Shown here in pieces: positions 32,813-62,904 of a stretch of DNA of 64,000 bases. The notes under the pieces were generated by a model. It saw nothing but the letters and a program-made list of their open reading frames with translations. It did no database searches and was not told the origin of the DNA. Source of the stretch: Acidobacteriota bacterium (GTDB taxonomy: Bacteria > Acidobacteriota > UBA890 > WLXD01); contig CBDBHB010000007.1 of assembly GCA_965205505.1 (NCBI GenBank), forward strand, positions 512,001-576,000, written 5' to 3'. Positions within the stretch are counted from its first letter, which is position 1. The number at the start of each line of letters is the position of its first letter. A program made the translations under genes and the position numbers.

Positions 32813-35674
32813 TCAGCGCGGTGCCACAAAGCGATAACGACCCGAGCCCAGCTCGAAGCGCGCGCCCTGTTCTTGCGTCACCGGCAGCGACCTGACTCCG
32901 TCCGCTGCGCCGGCCTGCCTGCCGCTCTCGGTTACGGCCCGGGCATCGCGCGTGGGAAGCCGCACCTCGGCTCGGGTGTTTACCGGGACCTCGATCTCGA
33001 TTAGGAGATCATCGTTCTCGAGGCGCCAGTGGCTGACGATCGTGCCGCGCGCGGACCTGTAGCTGGTCTCGGCCCATCGCAGGTCGCCCACGGGGTTCGG
33101 TTCGATAAAGAACCGATCGAAACCGACCGCCTCGGGGTGCGGCCTGATGCCGCCGATTCCCTTGTAAAACCACTCGCTCACTGAGCCGAACATGGGGTGG
33201 TTGTGCGAGTAGGTGTTGTCGGAGAACTCCCAGTGCTCCCACACCGTGGTGGCGCCGCGCTCGAGCATGTATCCCCAACCCGGGAAGGACCGTTGCTGCA
33301 CCATGTGCAGGGCGATGTCGGCGCGACCGGCGCGGGTGAGCTCCTCGAGCAGGTACTTGGTACCGAAGATGCCGGTGGCGATATGGCCGTCGTGTTCGAC
33401 CAGAACCTGCTCGACCATGCGCTCGATCGCGGCCTCGCGCTCGGCCGCCGGCACGAGATCCATGCTCAGTGCGGTCGCCTGACATGCCTGCGTGCCGATG
33501 TCGAAGACTCCCATGCCCGGCGTCAAGAACCGGTCGACGAACGCCTCATGAATGCGCACCGCGAGCAGCTCGTAGCGGACCCGTTCGTCTTCCCGGCCGA
33601 GGATCTGCGCCAGGCGCGCCACCAGCCGCGCCGCCTGCCGGTAGTGCGCGGTCGCGGTGAGCGCCACGGGTTTAGGGTCGAGGCTCTCGTGGTCGCTGAT
33701 GCAACGGTCGATGATGTGGCCTTCGGCGTGCTCTGCGTACAGATCGACCCACTGGCGGGCAACCTCGTACTGCTCGGACACGATGCGGCGATCGCCGTAG
33801 TACTGGTACAGCTGCGCCAGCAGCAATGGGTGGGCGAGGCCCCAGCCGATCGGGCCCGCATCCTCGACGTAGCCCGCCGCCGAGACGCCCACGAACGGAG
33901 CGGTCTCGGTGATCCACCCGTCGCCGCTGACAGCGTCGGCGTGATCGCGCACCGTTTTGGCGTAGAAGCTCGTGAAGTCGTAGTTGAGCATCGCCATCTC
34001 GCTGGTGGCGACGATGTCACCTCCATACTGGAACTTCTCGCGCGCCGGGCAGTCCGACTGGACGCCGAAGAGATTGCTGAGCAGGGTCCACTGCACCATC
34101 TCCTGCACGCGATTGAGCGTCTCGTCGGAGCAGGCAAAGCTGCCGGCGCTCTCCACATCGGTGTTGAGCCGCAGGCCTTCGATCGCGTCCAAGCCTGGCG
34201 TGCCGGGGAAGCCCGTGACCTCGACGTAGCGGAAGCCGTGGAAGGTAAACCGCGGCGTGTACACCTCGACGCCATCGCCGGCGAGCGTGTAGGTGTCGCA
34301 CTGCTTGGCCACGAGGGGGGCGCCCGGCCCGCCGCGCGGCTCGTCGTCGGCATTCTCTCCCTTAATCTGACCCGCGACCGCGGTCATCGGGTTGAGCGAG
34401 CCATCGTCGTACAGAAGCTCCCCCATGCGCATCTTGACCGTCGTGCCGCGCGGGCCCTCGACGCGCAGTCGGGCCCAGCCGGCGAAGTTCTGCCCCATGT
34501 CGAAGATGAAGACGCCGGATTCGATCTCGGTCACGCTCGTGGGGCGAAGCGTTTCCGTGACCCGTATCGGTGGGATCGGCTGGGCCTCGAGCGGCCCCAG
34601 CTCGACCGACTGTACGGTGGCCGGCCGCCAGCCCGAGTCCTCGAACTCCGGCCGGTCCCAGCCAGGCAACCGCCGGCGGGCGTCGAAGACCTCGCCGAGG
34701 TAGATGCTGTTGCGAATCACCGGGCCGGGGTGCACACGCCATCTGTCATCGGTTACAATCGACTGCGTCGTGCCGTCTTCGTACTCGATGTCGAGCTGCG
34801 CGATCAGGCACGGCTGGCCGACCACCATGTGCTCGCGGATGTTGATCCGGCCCCACATCTGCAGCGGCAACGGGTTGTACCAACCGTTGCCCAGCAAGGC
34901 GCCGACGACGTTGGGCCCGCGCTGCAGCATCCCGGTGACATCATGGGTGGTGTAGAGCACCCTTTTGCCGAAGCTCGTCCAGGCGGGATCGAGCACGTGG
35001 TCGGAGACCTTGGCGCCGTTGACGCGAAGCTCACAGTAGCCCAGGCCGGCAGCGTAGAGACGGGCGCTGGTTACGGGTTTCGACACCTCGAACGCGCGCC
35101 GCAGCAGCGGTGCCGGATGATCGTCGTACTGGGCTGCCCGCGTCACGGGAGCTGGCTCGCCATCACCGATCCAACTGCCTTGCCAGTCCAAAGGCGCAAG
35201 CAGGCCCATCTCCCAGATCGACGGCGCGCTCCAGTCCGATGGTATGCCGTCGCCGTCCCACACGCGGATCTTCCAGAAACACCGCTGGCGACTGGTGAGC
35301 GGCGGCCCCGAATACTCGATATGCAGTTGCTCGCTCGACGCCACCCGGTCGCTGTCCCACAGGTCGGCGGCGTTCGCCTCCAGCAGCTCGATGCGCGTCG
35401 TGACGAGGACCTGGTAGGCGCTCTGGCGCAGGCTGCGCGCTTCGGGGTGCCGCGCAACGAGCCGCCACCCGAGGCGCGGTCGCGGGAGGTCGATGCCGAG
35501 CGGCTCGCGAAAGTACTCGCAGCGCAGGTCGACCGGGACGATGCTCCCGAATGTTTCCTGTGTTGCCGCGCGGCCTGCCGGCGACGATGCAGCCGGGTCG
35601 GGTGCGCGGCGGCTGGAGCCGAGCGCACCGGCCGCCAGCGATCCCTGCAGGAAGTCGCGCCGGCGGATCTTCAC
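32813..35674 (-). CDS. Tat-exported GH78 alpha-L-rhamnosidase
   Basis: RRRDFL, DLRCEY, FDMGQNFAG, FTFHGFRY, SDCPAREK, GATTVWE, SHNHPMFG. Confidence 0.92.
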   Translation of the reverse strand: MKIRRRDFLQGSLAAGALGSSRRAPDPAASSPAGRAATQETFGSIVPVDLRCEYFREPLGIDLPRPRLGWRLVARHPEARSLRQSAYQVLVTTRIELLEANAADLWDSDRVASSEQLHIEYSGPPLTSRQRCFWKIRVWDGDGIPSDWSAPSIWEMGLLAPLDWQGSWIGDGEPAPVTRAAQYDDHPAPLLRRAFEVSKPVTSARLYAAGLGYCELRVNGAKVSDHVLDPAWTSFGKRVLYTTHDVTGMLQRGPNVVGALLGNGWYNPLPLQMWGRINIREHMVVGQPCLIAQLDIEYEDGTTQSIVTDDRWRVHPGPVIRNSIYLGEVFDARRRLPGWDRPEFEDSGWRPATVQSVELGPLEAQPIPPIRVTETLRPTSVTEIESGVFIFDMGQNFAGWARLRVEGPRGTTVKMRMGELLYDDGSLNPMTAVAGQIKGENADDEPRGGPGAPLVAKQCDTYTLAGDGVEVYTPRFTFHGFRYVEVTGFPGTPGLDAIEGLRLNTDVESAGSFACSDETLNRVQEMVQWTLLSNLFGVQSDCPAREKFQYGGDIVATSEMAMLNYDFTSFYAKTVRDHADAVSGDGWITETAPFVGVSAAGYVEDAGPIGWGLAHPLLLAQLYQYYGDRRIVSEQYEVARQWVDLYAEHAEGHIIDRCISDHESLDPKPVALTATAHYRQAARLVARLAQILGREDERVRYELLAVRIHEAFVDRFLTPGMGVFDIGTQACQATALSMDLVPAAEREAAIERMVEQVLVEHDGHIATGIFGTKYLLEELTRAGRADIALHMVQQRSFPGWGYMLERGATTVWEHWEFSDNTYSHNHPMFGSVSEWFYKGIGGIRPHPEAVGFDRFFIEPNPVGDLRWAETSYRSARGTIVSHWRLENDDLLIEIEVPVNTRAEVRLPTRDARAVTESGRQAGAADGVRSLPVTQEQGARFELGSGRYRFVAPR

Positions 35675-46970: not shown

Positions 46971-48308
46971 TTAGGAGACGACAATCAGCTCCGGTGCCAT
47001 CGTCGTGAGCGAGCGGCATCGACCCTTCTCGTAGACGTAGGTATCGATCAGCGCTGTGCTGCCGGTCGCGAAACTCTCGTAGTTGGTCACCTGGCGCTCT
47101 TGGAGGACCCAATCCAACCGATCCTCCTCGCCGACGGTAAATTCGAACCAACCGCACCAATCGGGGGGAAAGCTGATCCCCAGCTCATAGCCACCAAGCC
47201 AGCCAGGCATCTTGCCCTGCTGGCGCAGCTGCCAGGCACCGGTCTCCTTGTAGAACTCCCGCAAGGTCCGCGTCAGCTCGTTGAGCGGTAGGCCGGGCTT
47301 GGCGGTATCGTGAACAACGTTCATGGCCCGGCCGTTCATCTCGTAGAGATCCACCAGCTCCTGGGGTGGCTCACCGAGGAACAAGCCCCGGGAGGTATTG
47401 CAGTGGTAGCGATTCTTGACCCCACAGACATCGACGATGACGTGATCCCCCTGCTGGATTACGCGCTCGGATGCAATGCCGTGGATAAACTTGACGCCCC
47501 CTGCCTTGACGCAGCAGAGCAGGCCCGACATCCCTCCGCCGGCACGGGTCATGGCGCGCACCATCTCACCGTAGAGCTCTAGCTCTGTCACACCGGGCTG
47601 AAGGGCCTCTATGACTGCCTGCAGGCCGACGTCGGCAATCCGGCCCGCCTCCTCCACCACCTCGATCTCGGCCGGCGACTTGTGCACCTTGACCTCGACC
47701 ATGACGTCCGAAGCGTCGATGAGCTCGCAACCACGATCGCTGAACACCGCCTCGACCTGCTTCATGTGGAGGGGCCGCGGACGATAGCTGTTGTACTGCA
47801 GCCCGACCGTCCCGTTGAGCCACCCGGCTGCCTCCAGCTCCATGGCGTGACCCTCACAGGGGCGCTCACCACCGGGCCGGGGACGCCGGATATCCATGGC
47901 GGCGGAGGTCGCCGCCATGAGCTCATCGTGGGTGTCGAAGTGGATGAGGTTATCGTGGTCGACGTGTACGGCGGTGATCGAGCTCGGGCTCCAGTTTTTG
48001 GGACAGTTCTGCTGATACCAGCTCAGCTCCAGACCGTGCAGGTAGCACATGTCTTCGGGCATGGTGACGAACAACATGTCGATGTTGTCCTGCGCCATCC
48101 GATCCCGCACGCGGCGTAACCGCTCCTGATATTCAGCCTTGGAGAACGGCGGTGGCGGATGGGCACCGATCGTGGCTCCGGGCACCACCGTGCGGGGCGT
48201 CAAGCCGCCGCTCGGGGCCGCGTTCACCGTGCCAGAGGTGAGCATTCCCGCTGTTGTCGCTGCCGACGTTGCAAGAAAGGCGCGTCGATCGATCTGATGC
48301 TTGGCCAT
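46971..48308 (-). CDS. Tat-exported M24 family protein (creatinase/ectoine-hydrolase-like)
   Basis: DRRAFL, FSKAEYQERL, KSPAEI, PGVTELEL, DVCGVKNRYH, GYELGISFPPDW. Confidence 0.8.
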   Translation of the reverse strand: MAKHQIDRRAFLATSAATTAGMLTSGTVNAAPSGGLTPRTVVPGATIGAHPPPPFSKAEYQERLRRVRDRMAQDNIDMLFVTMPEDMCYLHGLELSWYQQNCPKNWSPSSITAVHVDHDNLIHFDTHDELMAATSAAMDIRRPRPGGERPCEGHAMELEAAGWLNGTVGLQYNSYRPRPLHMKQVEAVFSDRGCELIDASDVMVEVKVHKSPAEIEVVEEAGRIADVGLQAVIEALQPGVTELELYGEMVRAMTRAGGGMSGLLCCVKAGGVKFIHGIASERVIQQGDHVIVDVCGVKNRYHCNTSRGLFLGEPPQELVDLYEMNGRAMNVVHDTAKPGLPLNELTRTLREFYKETGAWQLRQQGKMPGWLGGYELGISFPPDWCGWFEFTVGEEDRLDWVLQERQVTNYESFATGSTALIDTYVYEKGRCRSLTTMAPELIVVS

Positions 48309-49382: not shown

Positions 49383-49642
49383 CGACCTTCCCCCTCTCCG
49401 AGATGGCCACGCCGGACCGTTCTTCACGGTTCAGCTTCGGATTCGGTCATTTTGTACAAATCTATTCTACCACATACACTCCGCGAGAGCCCCTTTGACC
49501 GGCTCCCCGAAAACTGAGCCGGTGCGAGTGTGAGTTTCACAAGCTGCTGTCCGCTTTCGCCGTGGCGCTGTGTGTCGTCCACCGCTATGGTCCTACGGTG
49601 AAGGTGAGAAGTCCGCAACTCTTCGGGACGATGAGGTGGACC

Positions 49643-51778
49643 ATGTCGTCAGCGAGATCAACGGTTGACCCGCAACCTCGTAGTGACGCCCCCGGGGCAG
49701 CTCCGATCCACGGCACCATCCGCCGCTGCTTCAGCGGGCTGACGCTAGCCGCGTGCCTGCTGGTCAGCTCGGCCACGGTCGTGCCATCGGCAGCAGGGTC
49801 GAGAGGTCCGTACGGCTTGCGCACCGAGAAGGTGTGGATTCCGATGCCGGACGGCGTGCGGCTTTCCGCCACGCTGTACATGCCCGACGGGGGAGCGCCC
49901 GGGGAGAAGTTCTCGGCCGTGCTGAACTACCACCCCTATCGCAAGGACGACGGCAGCGGCAGGTCGAGCACCGACGCCTACTTTGCATCGCACGGCTTGG
50001 TGGGAGCGGTCGTCGACATTCGTGGCACCGGCAGCAGCGAGGGCAAGGCCATCGAGCACGAGTACTCGGACATCGAGCAGCGCGACGGCCTGGAGATCAT
50101 CGACTGGCTGTCCAAGCAACCTTGGTCGACGGGCAACGTCGGCATGCGGGGGCTATCGTGGAGCGGCTTCAACTCTATCCACATGGCGATGCGCAAGCCG
50201 CCGGCGCTTAAGGCCATCGTGCCGAACATGGCCAGCGACGACCTCTTCTACGACGACGTGCACTACTGGGACGGCATGGTGCACCACTCCACATGGGAGC
50301 AGGGCTTCGACGTCAGCATCGCGAGAAGCCGTACGCCCGATTTTCCGACCGACGAGGAGACGTTGGCGCAGCGCTTTGACTCGCCGCCGCCGACGCTCTT
50401 CTACATCGACAAGCAACGTGACAACCCCTACTGGGACGGCCGCTCGCTGAACACCGACTACAGCGCCGTCGACATCCCGACGATGATGATCGGCGGCTGG
50501 TACGACGGCTACCGGGACAGCCTGTTCCGCATGCTCGAGCACATGGACGTGCCGGTCAAAGCGATCGTCGGCCCCTGGACTCACACCTCGCCACAATCGG
50601 CTAGCCCCGGCCCGAGGATCGAGGGGCGCCACGAGATGGTGCGCTTCTTCGATCACTGGCTCAACGGCAAGGACACCGGGCTCATGGACGAGCCGCCCCT
50701 GTCGGTGTACGTACGCAACTGGTATGCGCCGCCGGGAACCGACCTGGAGGAGGTCCCCGGACAGTGGCGGATGGAAGAGTGGCCTCTGCCGCGCGCCGAG
50801 CCGCGACCGCTGTATCTGACCGACTCCGGCGAGCTGGCCGACGTGGCGCCGAGCCCAGGGCACCACGAGCTCGAGTACCGTCCGTCGATGGGCGCGGAGT
50901 TCGGGTCCCGCTGGTGGGGCAACTTCACGCCCGATCAGCGCGCGGTCGATGCGGCGGGAAGCCTCGTCTACGAGTCGGCCCCGCTCACCGAGGACCTCGA
51001 GATCCTCGGGTTTCCCATGGCGATGCTGCACGCCTCCGCATCGGCACCGCTGGCCAACTGGTTCGGACGACTGACCGACGTGGCGCCGGACGGCAGCGTG
51101 ACGCTGGTCACCGGCGGTGGCCTGAGCGGCGCGCGACGCGATCCGTCTACGGAACCGACGGCGCTGGAGCCCGGCAAGGTGTACCCACTGGAGCTGGAGC
51201 TACACGTGACCTCCTGGGTGTTCCCCAAGGGCCACAAGATCCGGCTGGCGATCTCCAACGCGTTCTTCCCGCTCAACTGGCCGACGCCGTATCCGATGAC
51301 CACGTCGCTGTATTTTGGCGGCGATCGGATTTCCAAGCTCGTGCTTCCCACGGTGCCCTACGAGGCCCGCCCGAAGCCCGAGTTTCTCCCGGTGCAACCG
51401 AATCCACCGTCCGAGAACGTGAGGTACTTGCCGGGCTCGTCTTCACGGAAGGTCGACCGCGACGAGGAGAGTGGACGGACACGTATCTCGGTGCGCAGCA
51501 CCAGCGCCGGCGACTACCCGTGGGGAAGGCGAGCTTCGGACCAGAACCTGATCTACGACATCGACGACGATCGGCCCGAGGCGGCGGAGCTACACAGCGA
51601 CAACAGCATCACGTTGATCCTGGAAGGTGGATCACGCGTGCTCGTGTATCGCGGCTGGATGGACTTCGAGGGCGACCACGACAACTTCTACTATCGCTAC
51701 CGCCGCACGCTGCTCGAGAACGGCATTCAGATCCGCGAGAAGCAGTGGGAGAAGACCGTCCCCCGGGACCACCACTAG
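49643..51778 (+). CDS. Exported CocE/NonD family hydrolase; start uncertain
   Basis: IPMPDGVRLSA, PYRKDD, DIRGTGSSEG, GLSWSG, GGWYD, GPWTH. Confidence 0.9.
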   Translation: MSSARSTVDPQPRSDAPGAAPIHGTIRRCFSGLTLAACLLVSSATVVPSAAGSRGPYGLRTEKVWIPMPDGVRLSATLYMPDGGAPGEKFSAVLNYHPYRKDDGSGRSSTDAYFASHGLVGAVVDIRGTGSSEGKAIEHEYSDIEQRDGLEIIDWLSKQPWSTGNVGMRGLSWSGFNSIHMAMRKPPALKAIVPNMASDDLFYDDVHYWDGMVHHSTWEQGFDVSIARSRTPDFPTDEETLAQRFDSPPPTLFYIDKQRDNPYWDGRSLNTDYSAVDIPTMMIGGWYDGYRDSLFRMLEHMDVPVKAIVGPWTHTSPQSASPGPRIEGRHEMVRFFDHWLNGKDTGLMDEPPLSVYVRNWYAPPGTDLEEVPGQWRMEEWPLPRAEPRPLYLTDSGELADVAPSPGHHELEYRPSMGAEFGSRWWGNFTPDQRAVDAAGSLVYESAPLTEDLEILGFPMAMLHASASAPLANWFGRLTDVAPDGSVTLVTGGGLSGARRDPSTEPTALEPGKVYPLELELHVTSWVFPKGHKIRLAISNAFFPLNWPTPYPMTTSLYFGGDRISKLVLPTVPYEARPKPEFLPVQPNPPSENVRYLPGSSSRKVDRDEESGRTRISVRSTSAGDYPWGRRASDQNLIYDIDDDRPEAAELHSDNSITLILEGGSRVLVYRGWMDFEGDHDNFYYRYRRTLLENGIQIREKQWEKTVPRDHH

Positions 51779-51810
51779 CAGGCCGTAGTGAAAGTGTAGT
51801 GGGTCTGGTT
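51775..51810. mobile_element. Solo terminal repeat of MITE family A
   Basis: CTAGCAGGCCGTAGTGAAAGTGTAGTGGGTCTGGTT fills the gap between two convergent stops. Confidence 0.8.
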
Positions 51811-51811
51811 G

Positions 51812-53626
51812 TCAGGACGCGTCGATATGGTCGGCGGCCGGCGGGTAGAATCGGTCGACGCTGTTGCTCATGAGAAAGTGGTAGGCGACCGTGTTGGGCG
51901 GCTCCAGCGGACGATCGGCCGGGGCTTGTTGCCAGGGCATCACCTGGCGGAATGCTTCCCAGGACGCCGTCGGCGCTTCCCCGAAACGGCGCGAAGGGTC
52001 CTGGATTTTCCGGATATCCATCCAATAGGCGGCCGTCATCAGGTCCTGTGCGAGCAGCCGCATGGTGGACCGAACGACGGCGCGTGCGCGCGTCACCTTT
52101 AGAAAGGTCTGCGCTTGGAGTTCTTCCACCGCGTCGCTTACCGGAACGCCCTCGGGGGTCAGCGGATGCGAGAGGATCTGGATCTCTTGCCAGATCGCCG
52201 TGGGATCGTAGCCGATCCCCCAGGGGGCGGCGTTCGCGCGCTGCTCGGGCGTCAGCACGTCCTCGGGCGAGACCACTGTGAAGAAGGGATTGCCGAACCG
52301 GTAGATGCGTTGGACGACGGCGACATCCATGTTGGCGAGCGCGTTGGTGAAGGCCTCGATTTCGTTGGCCATGGGAATAGGGATCCCAGTTCGCGTTCGA
52401 AAAAATGAAGCCGCTCTGACCGTTGCTGTGCTCGCCGCCGCGCACGTAGTATTTCATCGCCTGCGGCGTGTTCAGCTCCCAGCTGTCTTCGGGCGAGACT
52501 CCCACGAGCACGGCGGGATTCTGGTCGGATGAGTTGATCTGCAGGAGCACCGTGTCTCGCAGCATCGCCCAGGCCTTCCAGGCCGAGCCCTGCCGCGCAT
52601 AGGAGGCGCGCATGCTCACCGGGTCCTGGATGATCCGTTGCGGATCATCGTCGAACAGATAGCTGCCGCGGAGCATGTCAAGCACCCGCGCGGCGTCGAG
52701 ATTGAGCCATTTGAAAGGCCGGTTCGCCTGCACCGGCGAGGTGAGCGGCATCACGCTGCTGTTGAGCGCGGCCAGATCCATCGCATAGATGAGGTCGGCC
52801 CAGTCGATCGCCGCGCGCCCCTCGGCGACCAGCAGCGCCGCCTGGCCGACGGCGTAGGCGTTGGTGCTGAAGAAGGCGGAGGTGTAGACTGCTCGAGCGG
52901 CTCGAGCGGCTCGAGCGGCTCGAGCGGCGACAGCCCCGCCGCCTCGAGCGCCTGTGCGGCAGTCATGCGCTCGCCCTGGTAGTAGGCGAAGCCTTCCCCG
53001 CCCATCACCGCCAGCACATTGCCCATCTGCGACAGGTCCGCCTCGCCGAGCGAGCCGCGCGAATATACGGCCGGCGTCACCCGCGAGTTGAGCATGTCGA
53101 CGAGAATCTGGCTCAGCCCCGGGCTCGCCGCCTCATAGACCATCGTGTTGGCCCGCACCGCCATCAGCGCGCGCACGATCTCCTCGTCGGAGACTTCCGG
53201 GCCGATACCGCGCTGGGCGCCGGCGCGAAACGCCCGCTTGCGGCGGTTGTAGATATAGTCGCGGTTTTCGGGCGCCAGCGGATCGCCGGTGAACAGCGAG
53301 ACCTCGCGCCCCGATCCCGCGCCGCGATTGAAGCCATAGATCGCAACGCCCTCGGTCGACGCTTGGCGAATCAGGCCGAACGCCTCGTTCTGGCGTTGCC
53401 TGGCCTCGGGGCTCAGCTCCACCTTGGCACCGTACCTGGCGATGTCGACGACCTGCTCGATAGTCATGTCCTCGCCGGTCAGCACGATGCTGCGGTCGAC
53501 CATCGTCGCCGTAATCGAATGATAGGAGGGCGGCGCCTCGGTCATTTGCGCTTGGGCGATGCCGCAGCTAAGCAACGCCGCCGCCACTGCGATCGGCGCT
53601 CCCCGTGACCGTGCCTTATTCATCAT
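51812..53626 (-). CDS. Aromatic amino acid ammonia-lyase (HAL) family protein lacking the ASG/MIO triad, with a signal peptide; frameshifts near 52890 and 52376
   Basis: IYGFNRGAG, GSLGEADL, STNAY, IQDPVSMR, NSSDQNP, SNANWDPYP, VEELQ; spans three ORFs. Confidence 0.8.
52892..52927. repeat. 9-bp tandem repeat (CTCGAGCGG)x4
   Basis: Read directly; encodes PLE repeats in the lyase. Confidence 0.95.
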
Positions 53627-53878
53627 CACGACATCCCCGTCCAAGAGTCACCGTCCGCTGTCTTCATTCCTGGTAGGCGCGCGGCATGGCGCGCGAAACA
53701 CAGGATTGGCCTCGCTTCGGCTACTCTACGTCTGCCCAGTGGGGTCTTTCGAGGACTAATCTACGAGTTTTCTTCGCCCTGAGTGGACGGGCCGCTGGTG
53801 CGCGGGTCCGCCTATCGCCTCTTTGAAATCGAATACCGGTCCTGTACTCACGGCACTTGCCTACTGGAGGCTCCCGGA

Positions 53879-55624
53879 ATGGGGTTGCGCGGCATAGTTG
53901 CTTTGCTCGCCTTGGCCCAGGCGTCCATTGGATCAGATGGCTCGCTCGCGGACATGGTTTTCGTGAATGGCGCCGTTTACACGGTTGATGCCGCGCGAAG
54001 CTGGGCGTCCGCGGTGGTCGTGACCGGTGATCGAATCACTTATGTCGGGGACGATGCCACTGCGCGCGATTTCGCCGGCCCGGCGACACGTGTCGTCGAC
54101 CTCGGGCGGCGCATGCTGCTACCAGGCTTCCAGGACTCCCATGTGCACCCTGGGATGGTTCCCAATCCGGCCGACTACGTAAGGCTCGACGGCCTGATTC
54201 GTCGCCAGGAGGTACTCGAGAGGCTTCGACAGTATGCCCAGGCGCGTCCCGAAAAACCCTGGATAGAGGGCGGCGGCTGGGACGAGACGGCGTTTCTTCC
54301 CAGCGGCCTACCCACCCGGGAGATGCTCGATAGCGTGGTCCCGGACCGACCCGCCTATCTGGTTAACAACTCCGGCCACGGCGGCTGGGCCAATTCGCTG
54401 GCGCTGGCCGCCGCGGGCATCAGCGCCGATACCGCCGACCCGCCCAACGGACGAATCGAGCGCGACGCGGACGGTCAGCCCACGGGCGCACTGCACGAGG
54501 AGTCGGCAATGGCGCTGGTCGACGCCGTCATTCCGCCGCTGACGGCCGAGGCGCGCGTGCTGAATCTGTCGGCGGCGCTGGACGAAATGAGTCGACTGGG
54601 CATTACGGCGCTCGAAGACGCCATGGCCACTCCCGAGATCGCGCGCGCCTACAAGACGCTGGACGAGCGCGGCGAACTGAAACAGCGCACCAACCTGTGT
54701 CTGCCCCACAGCCCCGCCGAAGACGACGACGCTCAGATCCAATCGTTCCTGACCCAACGCGCCGAGCTTGCCGGTCGTCGGCTACGGGCTAGCTGCGTGA
54801 AGCTCTTTCTCGACGGCGCCTACGGGTCTCACACGGTGGTCTTACTCGAGCCGTATAGCGACGATCCGAAGAGGTACGGTAAGGGTGAGCTTTTTATCGA
54901 ACAGAGCCGACTCGATCGTCTTGTCACCCGCCTGGACGCCGAGGGTTTTCAGGTGCACGCACACGCTCAAGGCGACGGCGCCGTGCGTGCCGCCCTCGAT
55001 GCCTTTGCCGAGGCTCGTCGGCACAACGGCTTTCGCGATAACCGGCACACAATCGCCCACCTGTGTCTGATCGACGCCGCCGACATCCCACGATTCAGAA
55101 CCCTCGGTGTGATCGCCAACATGACCCCCTTGTGGAGCCTTGGTGACGCCTGGGAAACGGTGTTTGCGCCACGCCTATTCGGGCCGGAGCGCAGCCAGCG
55201 TATCTTCCAGACTCGAACTCTCCTGGGCTCGGGCGTGATGATCGCCTGGGGCTCGGACTGGGACGTCACCGGAGTTTCACCCCTCGACGGCCTCGAGACC
55301 GCTACCACCCACCGCTATCCCGGCGGCATAGATCTCGCCGGCAATGAGGACAGCGCCTGGATTCCTGAGGAGAGGATCAGCCTGGAGCAAGCGATCGTCG
55401 CCTACACCAGCGCTGGGGCCTATCTCATGCACGCCGACAGCACGAGAGGATCGCTCTCGGCAGGAAACCTGGCTGACTTCGTCGTTCTGGACAGCAATCT
55501 CTTTGAAAGGAATCCCCTGGAGATCCACACCGTGCAGGTCGACATGACGGTCGTCGGTGGACAGTTGGTGTACACGGCGCCTGTCCCGGCTTCACCGAGC
55601 GATGCTGCCCCTTCCCGCAGTTAG
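53879..55624 (+). CDS. Exported Amidohydrolase_3 family protein
   Basis: PGFQDSHVH, KLFLDG, HAQGD, IAHL, GSDW. Confidence 0.9.
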   Translation: MGLRGIVALLALAQASIGSDGSLADMVFVNGAVYTVDAARSWASAVVVTGDRITYVGDDATARDFAGPATRVVDLGRRMLLPGFQDSHVHPGMVPNPADYVRLDGLIRRQEVLERLRQYAQARPEKPWIEGGGWDETAFLPSGLPTREMLDSVVPDRPAYLVNNSGHGGWANSLALAAAGISADTADPPNGRIERDADGQPTGALHEESAMALVDAVIPPLTAEARVLNLSAALDEMSRLGITALEDAMATPEIARAYKTLDERGELKQRTNLCLPHSPAEDDDAQIQSFLTQRAELAGRRLRASCVKLFLDGAYGSHTVVLLEPYSDDPKRYGKGELFIEQSRLDRLVTRLDAEGFQVHAHAQGDGAVRAALDAFAEARRHNGFRDNRHTIAHLCLIDAADIPRFRTLGVIANMTPLWSLGDAWETVFAPRLFGPERSQRIFQTRTLLGSGVMIAWGSDWDVTGVSPLDGLETATTHRYPGGIDLAGNEDSAWIPEERISLEQAIVAYTSAGAYLMHADSTRGSLSAGNLADFVVLDSNLFERNPLEIHTVQVDMTVVGGQLVYTAPVPASPSDAAPSRS

Positions 55625-55635
55625 AGCGAGCGACG

Positions 55636-57102
55636 CTAGTCCCCGGCCTTGACGACCTCCTTCATGTACCAGTTGACGAAGCCGTTGGGGCCGCCCTCGA
55701 AGGTGGAGTAGCGACTGGCAGCGTAGGCGCCGGACTCGATGCCCACGTGGTTGTTGTCGGTGATCCAGATGTCTTCCAGGAGCGTGATGTACCACAGCGC
55801 CTTGACGTTGTCCGGATCATAGTCGCGACCCTCGACGGCGTCGGGATGCACCAGCCAGACAGTCTCGCAATCGGTGAGCTTCTCCGTCCGCGGCGTGAAC
55901 CGTGCTACCACAACGTGATCGTCGTAGGCTTGCCAGAAGCCGGTGGTCTGGCCTGACCCGGCTTGGTCAGTCTCGTGGTTCCACCCTGTGATGTTGGGAA
56001 GGAGGATTGAGACCGGCTTGCCGTCGACCGACCCGGTGATGAAGCCGGGATTGAGCAACCCACCCATGCTCCCGGTGAGCTGCCCCGGTCGGGACTCCTC
56101 CGGAACCCACGCCGCGACCTCAGCAGCCCTTTCGTTTCTCTGCTCGCGCGTGAGCTCCAGATTCCAGTTGTGCGTCGCCACCAGATTCGTGTGCGACGGG
56201 CCGCAGTGATAGCACTCCCTGAAGTTCTCGATGAACAGCTTCCAGTTGGCGTTGATCGGGACGTATTCGCGTGCCGCGACCTTCAGATCCTCGAGGCTCC
56301 ACTTCTCGCCGATGTCCCTCACCGAGCTCACAGCCGACTCGAAGTCCGGCGGCGTGTCCGACTTGGACAGGTTGACGAAGACCTGGCCTTCGGCGACCCG
56401 CGTGTGGCAGGGAAGCAAACCGTTGTCGGCCGGGTCGAAGTCGTCCTGCATGCCGTAGGCGTAGATCAGGTTGCCTTCGGTGTCGTACGTCCAGGCGTGG
56501 TATGGGCAGCGGAACACCGGTGAGTTACCGGACTGGCCGAGCTGCTTGACCGACAGGCGCGGGTCGCTCGGGGGCGCGTCGGCATCGTGGCGGCACAGGC
56601 GCGAGCCGCGGTGGCGGCAGACGTTGTAGAAGCCTCGGATCTCGTTATCCGTACCACGGACGATCAGGATGGACTCGGAGCGACCGAACTCGAATACGTA
56701 GAAGTCACCCGGGTTCGGAATGCGGCTCGCCTGGTCGGTGTACTGCCAGATGTTCTCGGCCAAGAACGCTTCATCGGCGTCGAAGTGCTTTGGGTCGAGG
56801 TAGTACTCGGCGGGAAGGGTCAGGCCGTCCTTCCAGACGTCCGCGCTGGCTCTCTGGGGGACCGGCGTGGTCAAGGGAGCCGCATCCCCGCCACCGTAGC
56901 CACCGGGCTCGTCTGGCATCTCGACACGAGCCGCACGACCATAGGTCGTCTTCGTCGCGGCGCTCTTGACCGGGGTCGAGCCGAGCAACGTGTTCGGCAG
57001 GGCGACAGCCGCGGTGCCGGCGGCGACCGAGGTCTTTGCGAAGGTCCGGCGGCTGAGCTTGGTATCCGCGCCGTTCGTCTCGCCTGTATCTCGCTTGCTC
57101 AT
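55636..57102 (-). CDS. Rieske non-heme iron oxygenase alpha subunit (GbcA/choline monooxygenase-like) with a Tat signal
   Basis: SRRTFAK plus hydrophobic stretch; CRHRG...CPYHAW; NWKLFIENFRECYHCGPSH; ED in the C-terminal helix. Confidence 0.9.
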   Translation of the reverse strand: MSKRDTGETNGADTKLSRRTFAKTSVAAGTAAVALPNTLLGSTPVKSAATKTTYGRAARVEMPDEPGGYGGGDAAPLTTPVPQRASADVWKDGLTLPAEYYLDPKHFDADEAFLAENIWQYTDQASRIPNPGDFYVFEFGRSESILIVRGTDNEIRGFYNVCRHRGSRLCRHDADAPPSDPRLSVKQLGQSGNSPVFRCPYHAWTYDTEGNLIYAYGMQDDFDPADNGLLPCHTRVAEGQVFVNLSKSDTPPDFESAVSSVRDIGEKWSLEDLKVAAREYVPINANWKLFIENFRECYHCGPSHTNLVATHNWNLELTREQRNERAAEVAAWVPEESRPGQLTGSMGGLLNPGFITGSVDGKPVSILLPNITGWNHETDQAGSGQTTGFWQAYDDHVVVARFTPRTEKLTDCETVWLVHPDAVEGRDYDPDNVKALWYITLLEDIWITDNNHVGIESGAYAASRYSTFEGGPNGFVNWYMKEVVKAGD

Positions 57103-57211
57103 GCCGCCCTCCATCCGTCGAGTCCGAAACTGCAGTGCCCCTTCCGCTTGCCACGACGAGCGGTACCAGGAACCCGGTGATATTACAACCGTAGCGCCGT
57201 CACCTGGCGGT

Positions 57212-61050: not shown

Positions 61051-61164
61051 TTGACGAGTTCGGATTAAACGCGAATGTACCATTACCGATTCCGTAGGTT
61101 GCGGGTGCCGCTGCCTACCCCGGCGGCAAGAATGCAGCCCGATCAAAGAGGAGGAGGGGAGACG

Positions 61165-62904
61165 ATGCCGTTAGACAGGCTCCGCGGGAGGCTGCTCCGG
61201 ATTGCTTGGGCCGCAACCGCTGTCCTGGCCGCTGTCTCTGCCGTCGGCTGTAGCACCGGACGCTCGGCAGTGCAGGCCGACCTGCTGCTCTCCCACGGGA
61301 TAATCTACACGGTCGATGCGGAACGTTCCCGGGCCGAGGCCGTCGCCATCGCCGACGGCGCAATCGTCTACGTGGGCGACGCGGACGGCGCGGTGGCGCA
61401 TCAAGGTCGAGACACGCGGGTGATCGACCTCGGAGGGCGCCTGGTGCTCCCGGCGTTCCAGGATTGCCATATCCATCCCATCTCTGGCGGGATTGAGGCA
61501 CTCACGGTCAACCTGAACGGGTTGGGCACCGTTGAAGCGTACGCGCAGGCAATCGCGGCCTACGCGGAAGCTCATCCGGACGAGCCGTGGATTACCGGCG
61601 GCGGCTGGTCCGTATCCGTCTTCGGTCCAGGGGCGGTGGCTGGCAAGGAGATCATCGACGCCGTGGTGCCGGACCGTCCTGTGTACCTGTCATCTTCCGA
61701 CGGTCACACGGGCTGGGCCAACACCAAGGCGCTGGAGGCGGCGGGTATCACCGCCGACACTCCGGACCCGGTCAGTGGTCGCATCGATCGCGATCCAACC
61801 ACGGGCGAGGCGATCGGTAGCCTGCAAGAAGCCGCGATGGCTCTGGTCAGGGCCCACGTTCCGCCGACAGACCTCGACAGTCGCCTGGCGGGCCTGCGAT
61901 TCGCCGTCGACATGCTCAACGGATACGGCATCACATCAATCCAGGTTGCCTCAGCCCGGCGACCGAATCTGGAGGCATATCGAGAGCTCGATGAGCGCGG
62001 TGAGCTCACATTGCGCGTGGTCGCGTCCCTGCGGTGGGACCGCCAGCGGGGCGAAGAGCAGATCGAGGACATGCTGGAGTTGCGCGAGGAGTTCACGCGC
62101 GGGCGCGTCCGAGCGACGACCGTCAAGATCATGCAGGACGGCGTCATTGAGAACTTCACCGCCGCCTTGCTGGAACCGTACCTCCAGCAGGACGGCAACG
62201 GCAATCGCGGTTTTCCCATGGTGGACCCCGAGGCGCTCAAGAGCGCTGTCACCAACCTGGATCGAGAGGGGTTCCAAGTTCACTTCCATGCCATCGGTGA
62301 CGCCGCTACACGTCAATCGCTCGACGCGGTCGAGGCCGCACAGATGCAAAACGGGGATCTCGGGCATCGCCACCACATCTCGCACCTGGAACTGATTCAC
62401 CCCGACGACGTGCCTCGGTTTCAGCAGCTTCAGGTGATTGCCAACTTCCAGCCCCTATGGGCGGCTTCCAGCCCGCATATCACCGAGTTGACCATCCCGT
62501 ACCTGGGTCCCGAGCGAAGCCAGTGGCTTTATCCACTCGGCAGCGTGCTGGATACCGGAGCGATGCTGGCATTCGGAAGCGATTGGTCGGTGTCGACGGC
62601 CAACCCCTTCCCACAGATCGAAACGGCGCTAACGCGCCAGGGCGGCCAGGCCGAGGAACCGTTCCTGCCGGAGCAGCGCATCGACCTGGCTAGCGCCGTC
62701 GAGGCATTCACCATCAACGCCGCGTTCGTCAACGGCATCGAGGAGCAGACCGGATCGATTGAGGTCGGCAAGCTTGCCGACTTGATCGTCGTCGATCGCG
62801 ACGTCTTCGCGATCGATCCGCGTGACATCTCGGATACCCAGGTACTCCTCACCCTCATGGAAGGTGTGCCGGTTCACGGCGACCTCGAGGACCTGGAGCA
62901 GTGA
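61165..62904 (+). CDS. Amidohydrolase_3 family lipoprotein
   Basis: Lipobox AVGC, PAFQDCHIH, KIMQDG, HAIGD, ISHLE, FGSDW, GSIEVGKLAD. Confidence 0.9.
   Translation: MPLDRLRGRLLRIAWAATAVLAAVSAVGCSTGRSAVQADLLLSHGIIYTVDAERSRAEAVAIADGAIVYVGDADGAVAHQGRDTRVIDLGGRLVLPAFQDCHIHPISGGIEALTVNLNGLGTVEAYAQAIAAYAEAHPDEPWITGGGWSVSVFGPGAVAGKEIIDAVVPDRPVYLSSSDGHTGWANTKALEAAGITADTPDPVSGRIDRDPTTGEAIGSLQEAAMALVRAHVPPTDLDSRLAGLRFAVDMLNGYGITSIQVASARRPNLEAYRELDERGELTLRVVASLRWDRQRGEEQIEDMLELREEFTRGRVRATTVKIMQDGVIENFTAALLEPYLQQDGNGNRGFPMVDPEALKSAVTNLDREGFQVHFHAIGDAATRQSLDAVEAAQMQNGDLGHRHHISHLELIHPDDVPRFQQLQVIANFQPLWAASSPHITELTIPYLGPERSQWLYPLGSVLDTGAMLAFGSDWSVSTANPFPQIETALTRQGGQAEEPFLPEQRIDLASAVEAFTINAAFVNGIEEQTGSIEVGKLADLIVVDRDVFAIDPRDISDTQVLLTLMEGVPVHGDLEDLEQ

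Follow-up and report, generated by a model that had tools for sequence, protein, structure and literature searches.

Lyases of the histidine ammonia-lyase (HAL) family that lack the 4-methylideneimidazole-5-one (MIO) cofactor form a small, recently recognised class, with ergothioneine, hercynine and N-π-methyl hercynine as the assayed substrates. Two preprints describe exported MIO-less lyases of Shewanella that release trimethylamine from these three compounds (Swoo_3913 from histidine betaine, SO_3057 from ergothioneine and SO_3299 from N-π-methyl histidine betaine) and feed periplasmic flavocytochromes in anaerobic respiration (10.1101/2025.08.13.670108; 10.64898/2026.04.22.720169). The same preprints state that every characterised MIO-deficient lyase requires a trimethylamino group, and they cite residue roles for His117 of Swoo_3913, which binds imidazole N-τ, and for Lys384 of the Treponema denticola ergothionase (Td_ETL), which binds the thiolate and is essential for ergothioneine (10.1101/2025.08.13.670108; 10.64898/2026.04.22.720169). 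Because of these descriptions, an exported MIO-less betaine lyase is already a known kind of enzyme. Here we analyse a PF00221 (HAL/PAL family) gene on the minus strand of a 64,000-nucleotide stretch of DNA, the window, from an Acidobacteriota bacterium (assembly GCA_965205505.1, contig CBDBHB010000007.1, positions 512,001 to 576,000). A literature search on the clade to which this gene belongs found nothing past the Shewanella preprints.

We assign a probability of roughly 0.6 to the reading that the locus is a recently inactivated gene for an exported, MIO-incapable, ergothionase-like HAL homologue of a distinct clade of ~600-residue proteins, whose intact enzyme probably cleaves trimethylamine from a betaine. 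The clade is large, keeps the catalytic machinery, has both residues of histidine-substrate recognition swapped, is exported and is often triplicated, and for these reasons it is likely to supply both new betaine-cleaving specificities and environmental trimethylamine. The window copy itself is chiefly of use as an example of a gene inactivated repeatedly and independently within a single marine Acidobacteriota species.

Gene organisation and frame breaks

The gene lies in three consecutive pieces that jointly span the 466 positions of the PF00221 profile, each scoring above the 27.3-bit cut-off (Table 1). The middle piece carries the carboxylate-binding Gln and Arg in IIQDPVSMRAS, the Asn of NSSDQNPAV and a ~32-residue family-specific insertion, while the C-terminal piece contains the conserved Glu in AVEELQAQT and ends at a stop codon (51814-51812). 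A protein search with the first piece revealed an intact relative, P0001, which is 585 residues long, uninterrupted and ~99% identical to the window gene. Alignment by tblastn in three segments (frames -2, -1 and -2) matched 224 of 226 residues of the N-terminal piece and 187 of 189 of the C-terminal piece, and outside the breaks the two sequences differ at three residues (A189G, T336M and R564H). The catalytic residues all occupy one frame in P0001, whereas those of the window gene lie across its shifted frames.

The preliminary description of this locus, made from the sequence alone, had singled out a GSLGEADL loop in place of the MIO loop, the Tyr loop IYGFNRGAGSGRE and the N-terminus MMNKARSRGAPIAVAAALLSCGIAQA, and had mentioned frameshifts. 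All three strings are found on the minus strand, and two frame changes were located, so the window gene has no single uninterrupted reading frame. The Ala-Ser-Gly or Thr-Ser-Gly triad of MIO-dependent ammonia-lyases and aminomutases is absent from the window gene, and its scores with the NCBIfam models for HutH, PAL and TAM are far under the cut-offs (hutH, 149.6 vs 539 bits). The N-terminus combines a basic n-region, an uncharged run and an AQA-Q site, with LLSC loosely fitting a lipobox and no twin-arginine motif. By the simple rules applied throughout (crude regexes, with no SignalP or trained predictor), the window gene has a predicted export signal in common with the Shewanella periplasmic lyases.

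The first break falls within the tandem array, where the window contains four units minus one base at the array edge, a net gain of 17 bases over the two-unit PLEPLE-AVYTS of P0001 and the intact alleles. The second is an extra base that changes TATCCC to TATTCCC on the coding strand, in the D-P-Y-P-M-A codons that P0001 reads as WDPYPMANE. The +17 and +1 shifts sum to +18, which brings the C-terminal third back into the original frame, while ~171 codons between the breaks are out of frame and the original frame stops at 52753-52751 (open reading frame (ORF) 52751..53644). In each of the four sequencing runs used below (X15, X17, X20 and X1), short high-depth contigs (32-60 letters) are made up solely of the GCTCGAGCG repeat and have unrelated flanks. 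The array must therefore also exist at further loci or in different organisms from these samples, and these repeat-only contigs were excluded from the evidence on array copy number.

Strain variation and probable inactivation

Logan contigs of the four runs, at a depth of 2-7 and used as contigs rather than raw reads, were compared with window positions 51700-53700. Run X15, which shares 0.99 of the sampled words with the window, has zero substitutions at a word depth of 5.7; its contigs end inside the array (52910/52911) and keep the extra base at 52376, and this copy is broken. Runs X17 (share 0.89, one contig over the stretch) and X20 (0.84, two contigs) carry an intact gene, with the array 17 letters shorter, one letter fewer at 52376 and no other change. 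Run X1 (0.81) has an array 8 letters shorter, which leaves three units in frame, and also one letter fewer at 52376, and its gene is broken near codon 46 by an extra T behind 53487.

Gene calls from related strains display a similar range of states. The 90% cluster of P0001 comprises 10 members, three of them whole (585, 585 and 627 residues). Two 551-residue calls (P0391 and P0392, on contigs of 0.64 Mb and 1.27 Mb) start at a GTG right after an X1-type lesion, one call has 416 residues, a pair of 267 and 83 residues on a single 3.5-kb contig is separated by a frameshift near residue 440, and two are 186-residue C-terminal fragments, one of which (P0395) is the window's own third piece. Since the extra base at 52376 is kept in the X15 contigs and sister strains are broken elsewhere, the window copy is most likely a pseudogene, a decaying gene of a marine Acidobacteriota species. 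Within this one species the gene has been disrupted several times independently and is intact in some strains, which is most economically explained by recent pseudogene formation under relaxed selection.

The GyrA encoded by this genome shares 93% identity with proteins annotated as Acidobacteriota. The genome search found two further PF00221 genes. One (L001) encodes a canonical HutH, which has both GSVGASGDL and the S-H motif and is 26% identical to P0001. The other (L002) is an intact paralog on another contig, with GSPGEGDL, a signal-like N-terminus and 46% identity to P0001; its locus holds an amino-acid permease, an ornithine-cyclodeaminase-family protein and periplasmic dehydrogenases. 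With breaks that differ between strains and an intact paralog on another contig, the window gene looks dispensable in this species. No orthologue of it was found in the 30 relatives searched, from genus to phylum, and its nearest homologues (61-70% identity) belong to Steroidobacterales and other Proteobacteria. The gene was probably acquired by horizontal transfer. Among four other species searched in the genus, orthologues of L002 occur in G002 and G003 (~86%) and, in two pieces, in G004, and none was found in G001. The G004 copy (L089, contig C15) runs in two differing frames, residues 3-237 and 346-598, at ~90% identity with ~108 residues missing between them, and is another broken family member in the same genus.

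Relationship to ergothionase and HutH

The best solved match of P0001 is T. denticola ergothionase, 6s7j (HMMER, E 2.6e-40; next entry 3.5e-23), and the family profile A1 gives the same entry at E 1.1e-57 (next best 4.5e-33). An AlphaFold model of P0001, built with a 37-sequence alignment, reached a pLDDT of 85.1 and a pTM of 0.88. Its top Foldseek match is again 6s7j (E 6.8e-25, TM 0.72/0.84), and the top 30 or more matches all belong to the PF00221 family; an ESM Atlas lookup returned generic names only. In the HMMER alignment GSLGEADL pairs with SIGEGDI of 6s7j, which bears out the suggestion in the preliminary description that ergothionase shares this loop.

Ergothionase (6S7J/6S7Q) and the clade have in common the PF00221 fold, the absence of Ala-Ser-Gly, a shortened S-x-G-E-G/A-D loop aligned residue for residue, the loop of the Tyr base (YGLNRGVG vs YGFNRGAG), the Gln/Arg/Asn carboxylate ligands and the Glu. 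Ergothionase differs in having 497 residues, no signal and no insertions, with 23% identity in the structural alignment, whereas the clade adds an N-terminal export signal and insertions of 9 and ~32 residues and replaces the His by Gly and Lys384 by Tyr. The MIO-dependent HutH (P. putida 1B8F and the genome's L001) shares the fold, the family and the positions of Tyr, Gln, Arg, Asn and Glu; it differs in its MIO-forming GS-V-G-ASG-DL, its S-H motif, its cytoplasmic location and its length of ~510 residues.

An exhaustive search of 1.84 billion cluster representatives yielded 3181 matches at E <= 0.001, 1352 at <= 1e-10 and 209 at <= 1e-30. We compared 59 full-length unnamed representatives of 50% clusters with family members and references (HutH). 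The shortened two-residue loop is present in 56 of the 59; two lack the region, and one aberrant row has A-S-G in a poorly aligned context. Three groups were defined by their features ahead of any tree. Proteins of a cytoplasmic type have ~500 residues, no signal extension, no insertion after N-P-x-V, the His and a Lys at the Lys384 position. An intermediate group of 535-600 residues, often signal-like, has a 20-37-residue insertion after N-P-x-V, the His, and Lys, Asn or Asp at the Lys384 position. The window-gene clade, at 585-680 residues, has a signal extension, an insertion of ~32 residues after N-P-x-V and one of 9 before G-x-G-P-E, a near-invariant Gly at the His position, and Tyr, Phe, Trp, Val, Gly or Gln at the Lys384 position. 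In P0001, G123 aligns with the imidazole-binding His and Y454 with Td_ETL Lys384, the latter at low confidence.

A quick IQ-TREE analysis of the 59 rows, evaluated by the Shimodaira-Hasegawa-like approximate likelihood ratio test (SH-aLRT) only, places the 12 clade rows on one side of a branch with a support of 96, or 99 when two other rows without the His are added. Before this, seven rows that were aberrant or fragmentary (P0249, P0251, P0253, P0350, P0375, P0378 and P0383) had been removed. From the tree it follows only that the features fall within a single clade. The clade has neither the thiolate-binding Lys nor the imidazole-binding His of ergothionase proper. Because the residues tied to imidazole and thiolate binding are replaced, ergothioneine and hercynine, which the preliminary description had named for assay, are unlikely substrates judging by the aligned active sites (His to Gly, Lys to Tyr/Phe).

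The Shewanella periplasmic lyases are likewise exported, MIO-less PF00221 proteins. Their published numbering (Tyr77, His117, Asn339, Asn439 and Glu467) would suit a protein with insertions relative to HAL, and the intermediate group appears to fit it, in a comparison of numbering and not of sequences. In the Shewanella enzymes the imidazole-binding His is retained and the Lys384 position is occupied by Lys, Asn or Gln, whereas the clade has Gly and Tyr/Phe. The Shewanella genes adjoin flavocytochrome c or urocanate reductase and serve anaerobic respiration, whereas the clade adjoins TonB receptors, transporters or methylamine-oxidation genes and its hosts are mostly aerobic soil Proteobacteria. 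The clade has lost the imidazole-binding His, and no genetic coupling to flavocytochrome c or urocanate reductase is seen among the annotated window genes or the 14 most frequent neighbour clusters of 77 family loci.

Distribution, export and conserved residues of the family

A word-based protein search gave 318 proteins at E <= 0.001 among 8000 scored candidates, 120 of which were listed, and scanning one genome per species gave 311 stretches that encode a family member. All locus analyses use the best 80 of these 311 stretches, which represent 79 distinct loci and come mostly from Steroidobacteraceae and uncultured Gammaproteobacteria and also from Sphingomonas, Sphingobium, Novosphingobium, Phenylobacterium, Rhodospirillales and Woeseia. 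Family members occur in the cultured strains Sphingomonas oleivorans FW-11 (L062) and Sphingomonas formosensis CC-Nfb-2 (L080), which makes the function of the clade testable.

The MIO-loop regex matched 118 of the 120 listed homologues, all with E-A or E-G for A-S-G and a loop one residue shorter; the other two were unmatched. The preliminary description would have abandoned its proposal if the frameshifts were real and homologues retained Ala-Ser-Gly; the frameshifts are apparently real, and the triad is not retained. Tyr84, Gln315, Arg321, Asn351 and Glu482 (P0001 numbering) are invariant in the 37-sequence alignment A1, align with the HutH and 6s7j residues, and are conserved throughout the 59-representative alignment. 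P0001 has the residue pattern of a MIO-less trimethylammonia-lyase, with no MIO triad and with the Tyr base, the Gln/Arg/Asn ligands and the Glu kept.

At least 25 residues precede the conserved core in 107 of the 120 listed proteins. Among those 107, crude regexes detected an uncharged run of at least 10 residues in 103, an AxA-type site in 92, an RR-like motif in 10 and a lipobox-like motif in four, and on these counts export is predicted to be a family trait, mostly Sec-like. The window-gene clade has 32-50 residues before the core, vs 0-11 in the cytoplasmic-type relatives (~500 residues). MIO-less lyase representatives of 680-750 residues (P0312, P0315, P0341, P0348, P0367, P0368, P0376 and P0390) carry an extra 128-204 residues before the core as a putative N-terminal fusion.

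Genomic context of family members

Flanking ORFs at all of the 79 loci except L011 and L043 (77 loci) were clustered de novo, using crude longest-ORF calling. The commonest neighbours are a TonB-dependent receptor (41/77 loci), a tetratricopeptide repeat (TPR)-sulfotransferase (26/77), a second lyase paralog (22/77), a major facilitator superfamily (MFS) transporter and a fatty-acid-desaturase-like protein (21/77 each), a PhnD-like protein (18/77) and a choline sulfatase (TIGR03417, 814 bits; 12/77). Less frequent are a 730-residue old yellow enzyme (OYE)/Fe-S flavoenzyme (6/77) and a GcvT-like protein, a TauD-family dioxygenase and an amidase (5/77 each). Flavocytochrome c or urocanate reductase is not among the 14 most frequent neighbour clusters at these 77 loci, nor does the window contain one at 40-63 kb (no FAD_binding_2).

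Eight loci are closest to the window gene (L006-L011, L040 and L052; 61-65% identity). Three tandem exported lyase genes are present at six of them (L007, L008, L009, L010, L040 and L052), in Steroidobacterales and uncultured gammaproteobacterial metagenome-assembled genomes, each encoding ~600 residues that are 51-65% identical to P0001; the triplets suggest a battery of related specificities. Resistance-nodulation-division (RND) efflux genes are among the additions at triplet-type loci. The OYE/Fe-S flavoenzyme (730 residues) is found at L007, L008 and L040, the GcvT-like gene, whose best NCBIfam match is a trimethylamine N-oxide (TMAO) demethylase C-terminus (244 bits), at L008 and L040, an aminobutyraldehyde dehydrogenase at L040, and electron transfer flavoprotein (ETF) alpha/beta with a DgcB-like Fe-S protein at L007 and L068. 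The closest-relative loci resemble dimethylglycine or methylamine demethylase systems, and they provide the best contextual support for methylated-amine release, at a minority of loci. The window and the L002 locus add nothing on the substrate question.

Proposed function and alternative explanations

The intact enzyme would be exported by a Sec-type signal to the periplasm and would bind an α-N,N,N-trimethyl amino acid through its carboxylate. The Tyr would abstract the β-proton, and trimethylamine would leave without MIO, giving a 2-enoate. The substrate is probably a betaine other than hercynine or ergothioneine, because the clade has Gly in place of the imidazole-binding His and Tyr/Phe in place of the thiolate-binding Lys. 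In the Proteobacteria that hold most family members, the substrate may be taken up via TonB-dependent receptors. By analogy, a betaine-type (trimethylammonium) substrate is the best available proposal for the family, and to this extent the exported betaine lyase envisaged in the preliminary description stands at the family level; it does not stand for the window copy, most likely a pseudogene. We tentatively consider a wider possibility, that the clade comprises widespread periplasmic onium-lyases (at least 311 loci, often with three tandem paralogs) for a new substrate class, non-imidazole amino-acid betaines from fungi or plants (candidates are those of tryptophan, tyrosine, phenylalanine and aliphatic amino acids), which would be imported through TonB receptors, with the trimethylamine passed to adjacent DgcAB/ETF-type demethylases. 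If true, trimethylamine would be produced and betaines turned over in soils and sediments by a route that has so far gone unrecognised.

Several observations weigh against the reading of an inactivated betaine lyase gene. X15 is probably the window's own source sample and hence not independent, its contig for 51700-52910 exceeds the window by one letter at an unlocated site, so that the exact form of the first break is unconfirmed there, and all runs were represented by low-depth Logan contigs (2-7) rather than raw reads. The alignment around the Lys384 position is weak, with domain 2 at only 10.9-24.8 bits. Gene calling at the loci was by a crude longest-ORF method, with 2 of 79 loci dropped. 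The commonest neighbours (TonB receptor, TPR-sulfotransferase, MFS, desaturase-like, PhnD-like and choline sulfatase) give no clear pointer to betaines, and the methylamine-oxidation context is restricted to 6 (OYE/Fe-S flavoenzyme) and 5 (GcvT-like) of 77 loci, with no counterpart in the window or at the L002 locus. Trimethylamine release by this clade is proposed by analogy with the assayed lyases.

It is distinctly unlikely that the gene is intact in the organism and that both frameshifts are assembly or consensus errors in a low-coverage, repeat-bearing region. The word depth of the matching X15 contigs is only ~5.7, one unlocated letter differs between the X15 contig and the window, intact alleles with only 3 amino-acid differences exist, and the two shifts total +18 bases. 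The first break also coincides with a 9-bp tandem array, a kind of sequence at which assemblers fail and de Bruijn contigs are interrupted; the X15 contigs stop there (52910/52911), and an assembly error is possible at this site. Such an error is unlikely for the base at 52376, however, which lies outside any repeat or long homopolymer, is present in the independently built Logan contig of X15 while three other runs are without it, and alone would break the gene at ~residue 398 even with an in-frame array. Other strains carry different lesions (run X1 and the P0391/P0392 calls on the 0.64-Mb and 1.27-Mb contigs), and the large neighbouring window genes are uninterrupted. The copy number of the array, which differs among samples (2 units in X17, X20 and P0001, 3 in X1 and 4 in the window), could also suggest phase variation, with the array switching expression of the gene. 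We reject this highly improbable explanation because a 9-bp unit keeps the frame; the shift arises instead from one base missing at the array edge and an unrelated extra base 515 bases away, and other strains are broken at sites unrelated to the array.

With respect to the encoded enzyme, the view that export is all that sets the intact protein apart from ordinary ergothionases or histidine-betaine lyases, such as T. denticola ETL and the Shewanella enzymes SO_3057 and Swoo_3913, is improbable. Ergothionase is the nearest solved structure in both sequence and fold, the loop, Tyr, Gln, Arg, Asn and Glu are common to both, and periplasmic examples exist; yet the imidazole-binding His (His117 in Swoo_3913) aligns with a near-invariant Gly, Td_ETL Lys384 aligns with Tyr/Phe and not with Lys, Asn or Gln, the clade is set off by a long, well-supported branch, and flavocytochrome c or urocanate reductase is missing from the 14 commonest neighbour clusters and from the window at 40-63 kb. 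That the clade performs other chemistry or none is unlikely, be it elimination of another leaving group (sulfonium, sulfate ester or dimethylamine), an isomerase or mutase reaction, or non-catalytic binding linked to the TonB, sulfotransferase and sulfatase genes. The most frequent neighbours, among them TonB receptors, TPR-sulfotransferases, choline sulfatase, TauD-family dioxygenases and PhnD-like proteins, are not classical betaine genes, and two family-specific insertions adjoin active-site motifs. Against this, the invariance of the Tyr base, the carboxylate triad and the Glu in 37 diverse members argues for the same elimination on an α-substituted carboxylate, one of the preprints reports that all characterised MIO-less members need a trimethylamino group, and the closest relatives of the window gene adjoin N-methyl-amine oxidation genes.

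Window neighbourhood and related genomes

The preliminary description correctly placed the gene between a CocE hydrolase and an amidohydrolase, two genes from a Rieske enzyme with a twin-arginine translocation (Tat) signal, and took this neighbourhood to indicate quaternary-amine catabolism. It had also named an unconserved neighbourhood as grounds for refuting its proposal. Tblastn of the window's neighbours against the 79 family loci, within 10 kb, contradicts the interpretation drawn from the neighbourhood. Relatives of the S15 hydrolase lie near 3/79 loci; the proposed synteny check with the Rieske gene recovered only distant relatives at 7/79 loci (~30% identity, 4-10 kb away); and relatives of the amidohydrolase, the M24 protein, a pyrroloquinoline quinone (PQQ) dehydrogenase, an FG-GAP protein and two unnamed ORFs lie near 0/79. 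The quaternary-amine-looking neighbourhood of the window is not a conserved operon, and the window copy warns that an attractive neighbourhood of this type need not be one.

Table 1. Coordinates of the lyase gene, its breaks and other features of the window
Feature	Position	Strand	Details
PF00221 (HAL/PAL family) gene	53626-51812	-	three consecutive pieces
N-terminal piece	53626-52889	-	PF00221 positions 1-176, E 2e-39; original frame; holds Tyr loop and MIO-less loop
Middle piece	52898-52386 (feature 52898-52377)	-	PF00221 positions 183-308, E 1.1e-24; shifted one frame, tblastn frame -1
C-terminal piece	52387-51815 (feature 52381-51812)	-	PF00221 positions 326-465, E 5.8e-15; original frame again
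Signal-like N-terminus MMNKARSRGAPIAVAAALLSCGIAQA	53626-53549	-	from translation; followed by QMTE
Tyr loop IYGFNRGAGSGRE	53341-53303	-	in N-terminal piece
GSLGEADL	53056-53033	-	in place of MIO-forming GS-x-G-ASG-DL; one residue shorter
First break	52891-52928		perfect 9-bp tandem array GCTCGAGCG x4.2 (Tandem Repeats Finder), encoding PLEPLEPLEPLE on coding strand
Second break, extra base	52376/52377		AA on + strand vs A in intact alleles
CocE/NonD-family S15 hydrolase	49562-51778	+	Pfam, NCBIfam
Amidohydro_3 protein	53783-55624	+	Pfam; 613 aa
Rieske oxygenase alpha subunit	55636-57114	-	SRRTF (SRRTFAK) twin-arginine motif; best NCBIfam GbcA, 227 bits, below cut-off
Amidohydro_3 paralog	61075-62904	+	609 aa
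M24 creatinase/ectoine-hydrolase-like protein	46971-48308	-	NCBIfam DoeA-type, 128 bits, below cut-off; starts MAKHQIDRRAFLATSAATTAG
Alpha-L-rhamnosidase	32813-35674	-	953 aa, GH78 domains; starts MKIRRRDFLQGSLAAGALG, Tat-type signal

Export signals are found on many genes in that part of the window where the α-L-rhamnosidase lies. The MAKHQIDRRAFLATSAATTAG start of the M24 protein is a twin-arginine export motif, unusual for that cytoplasmic enzyme family. The two large Amidohydro_3 paralogs lie within 9 kb and flank the Rieske and FG-GAP/choice-of-anchor-B genes. In related genomes, two HAL-family genes (L090 in G026 and L091 in G011) read GSVGACGDL, with Ala-Cys-Gly instead of the usual Ala-Ser-Gly, and have otherwise canonical YGVNTGIG and NHAAGIG motifs.

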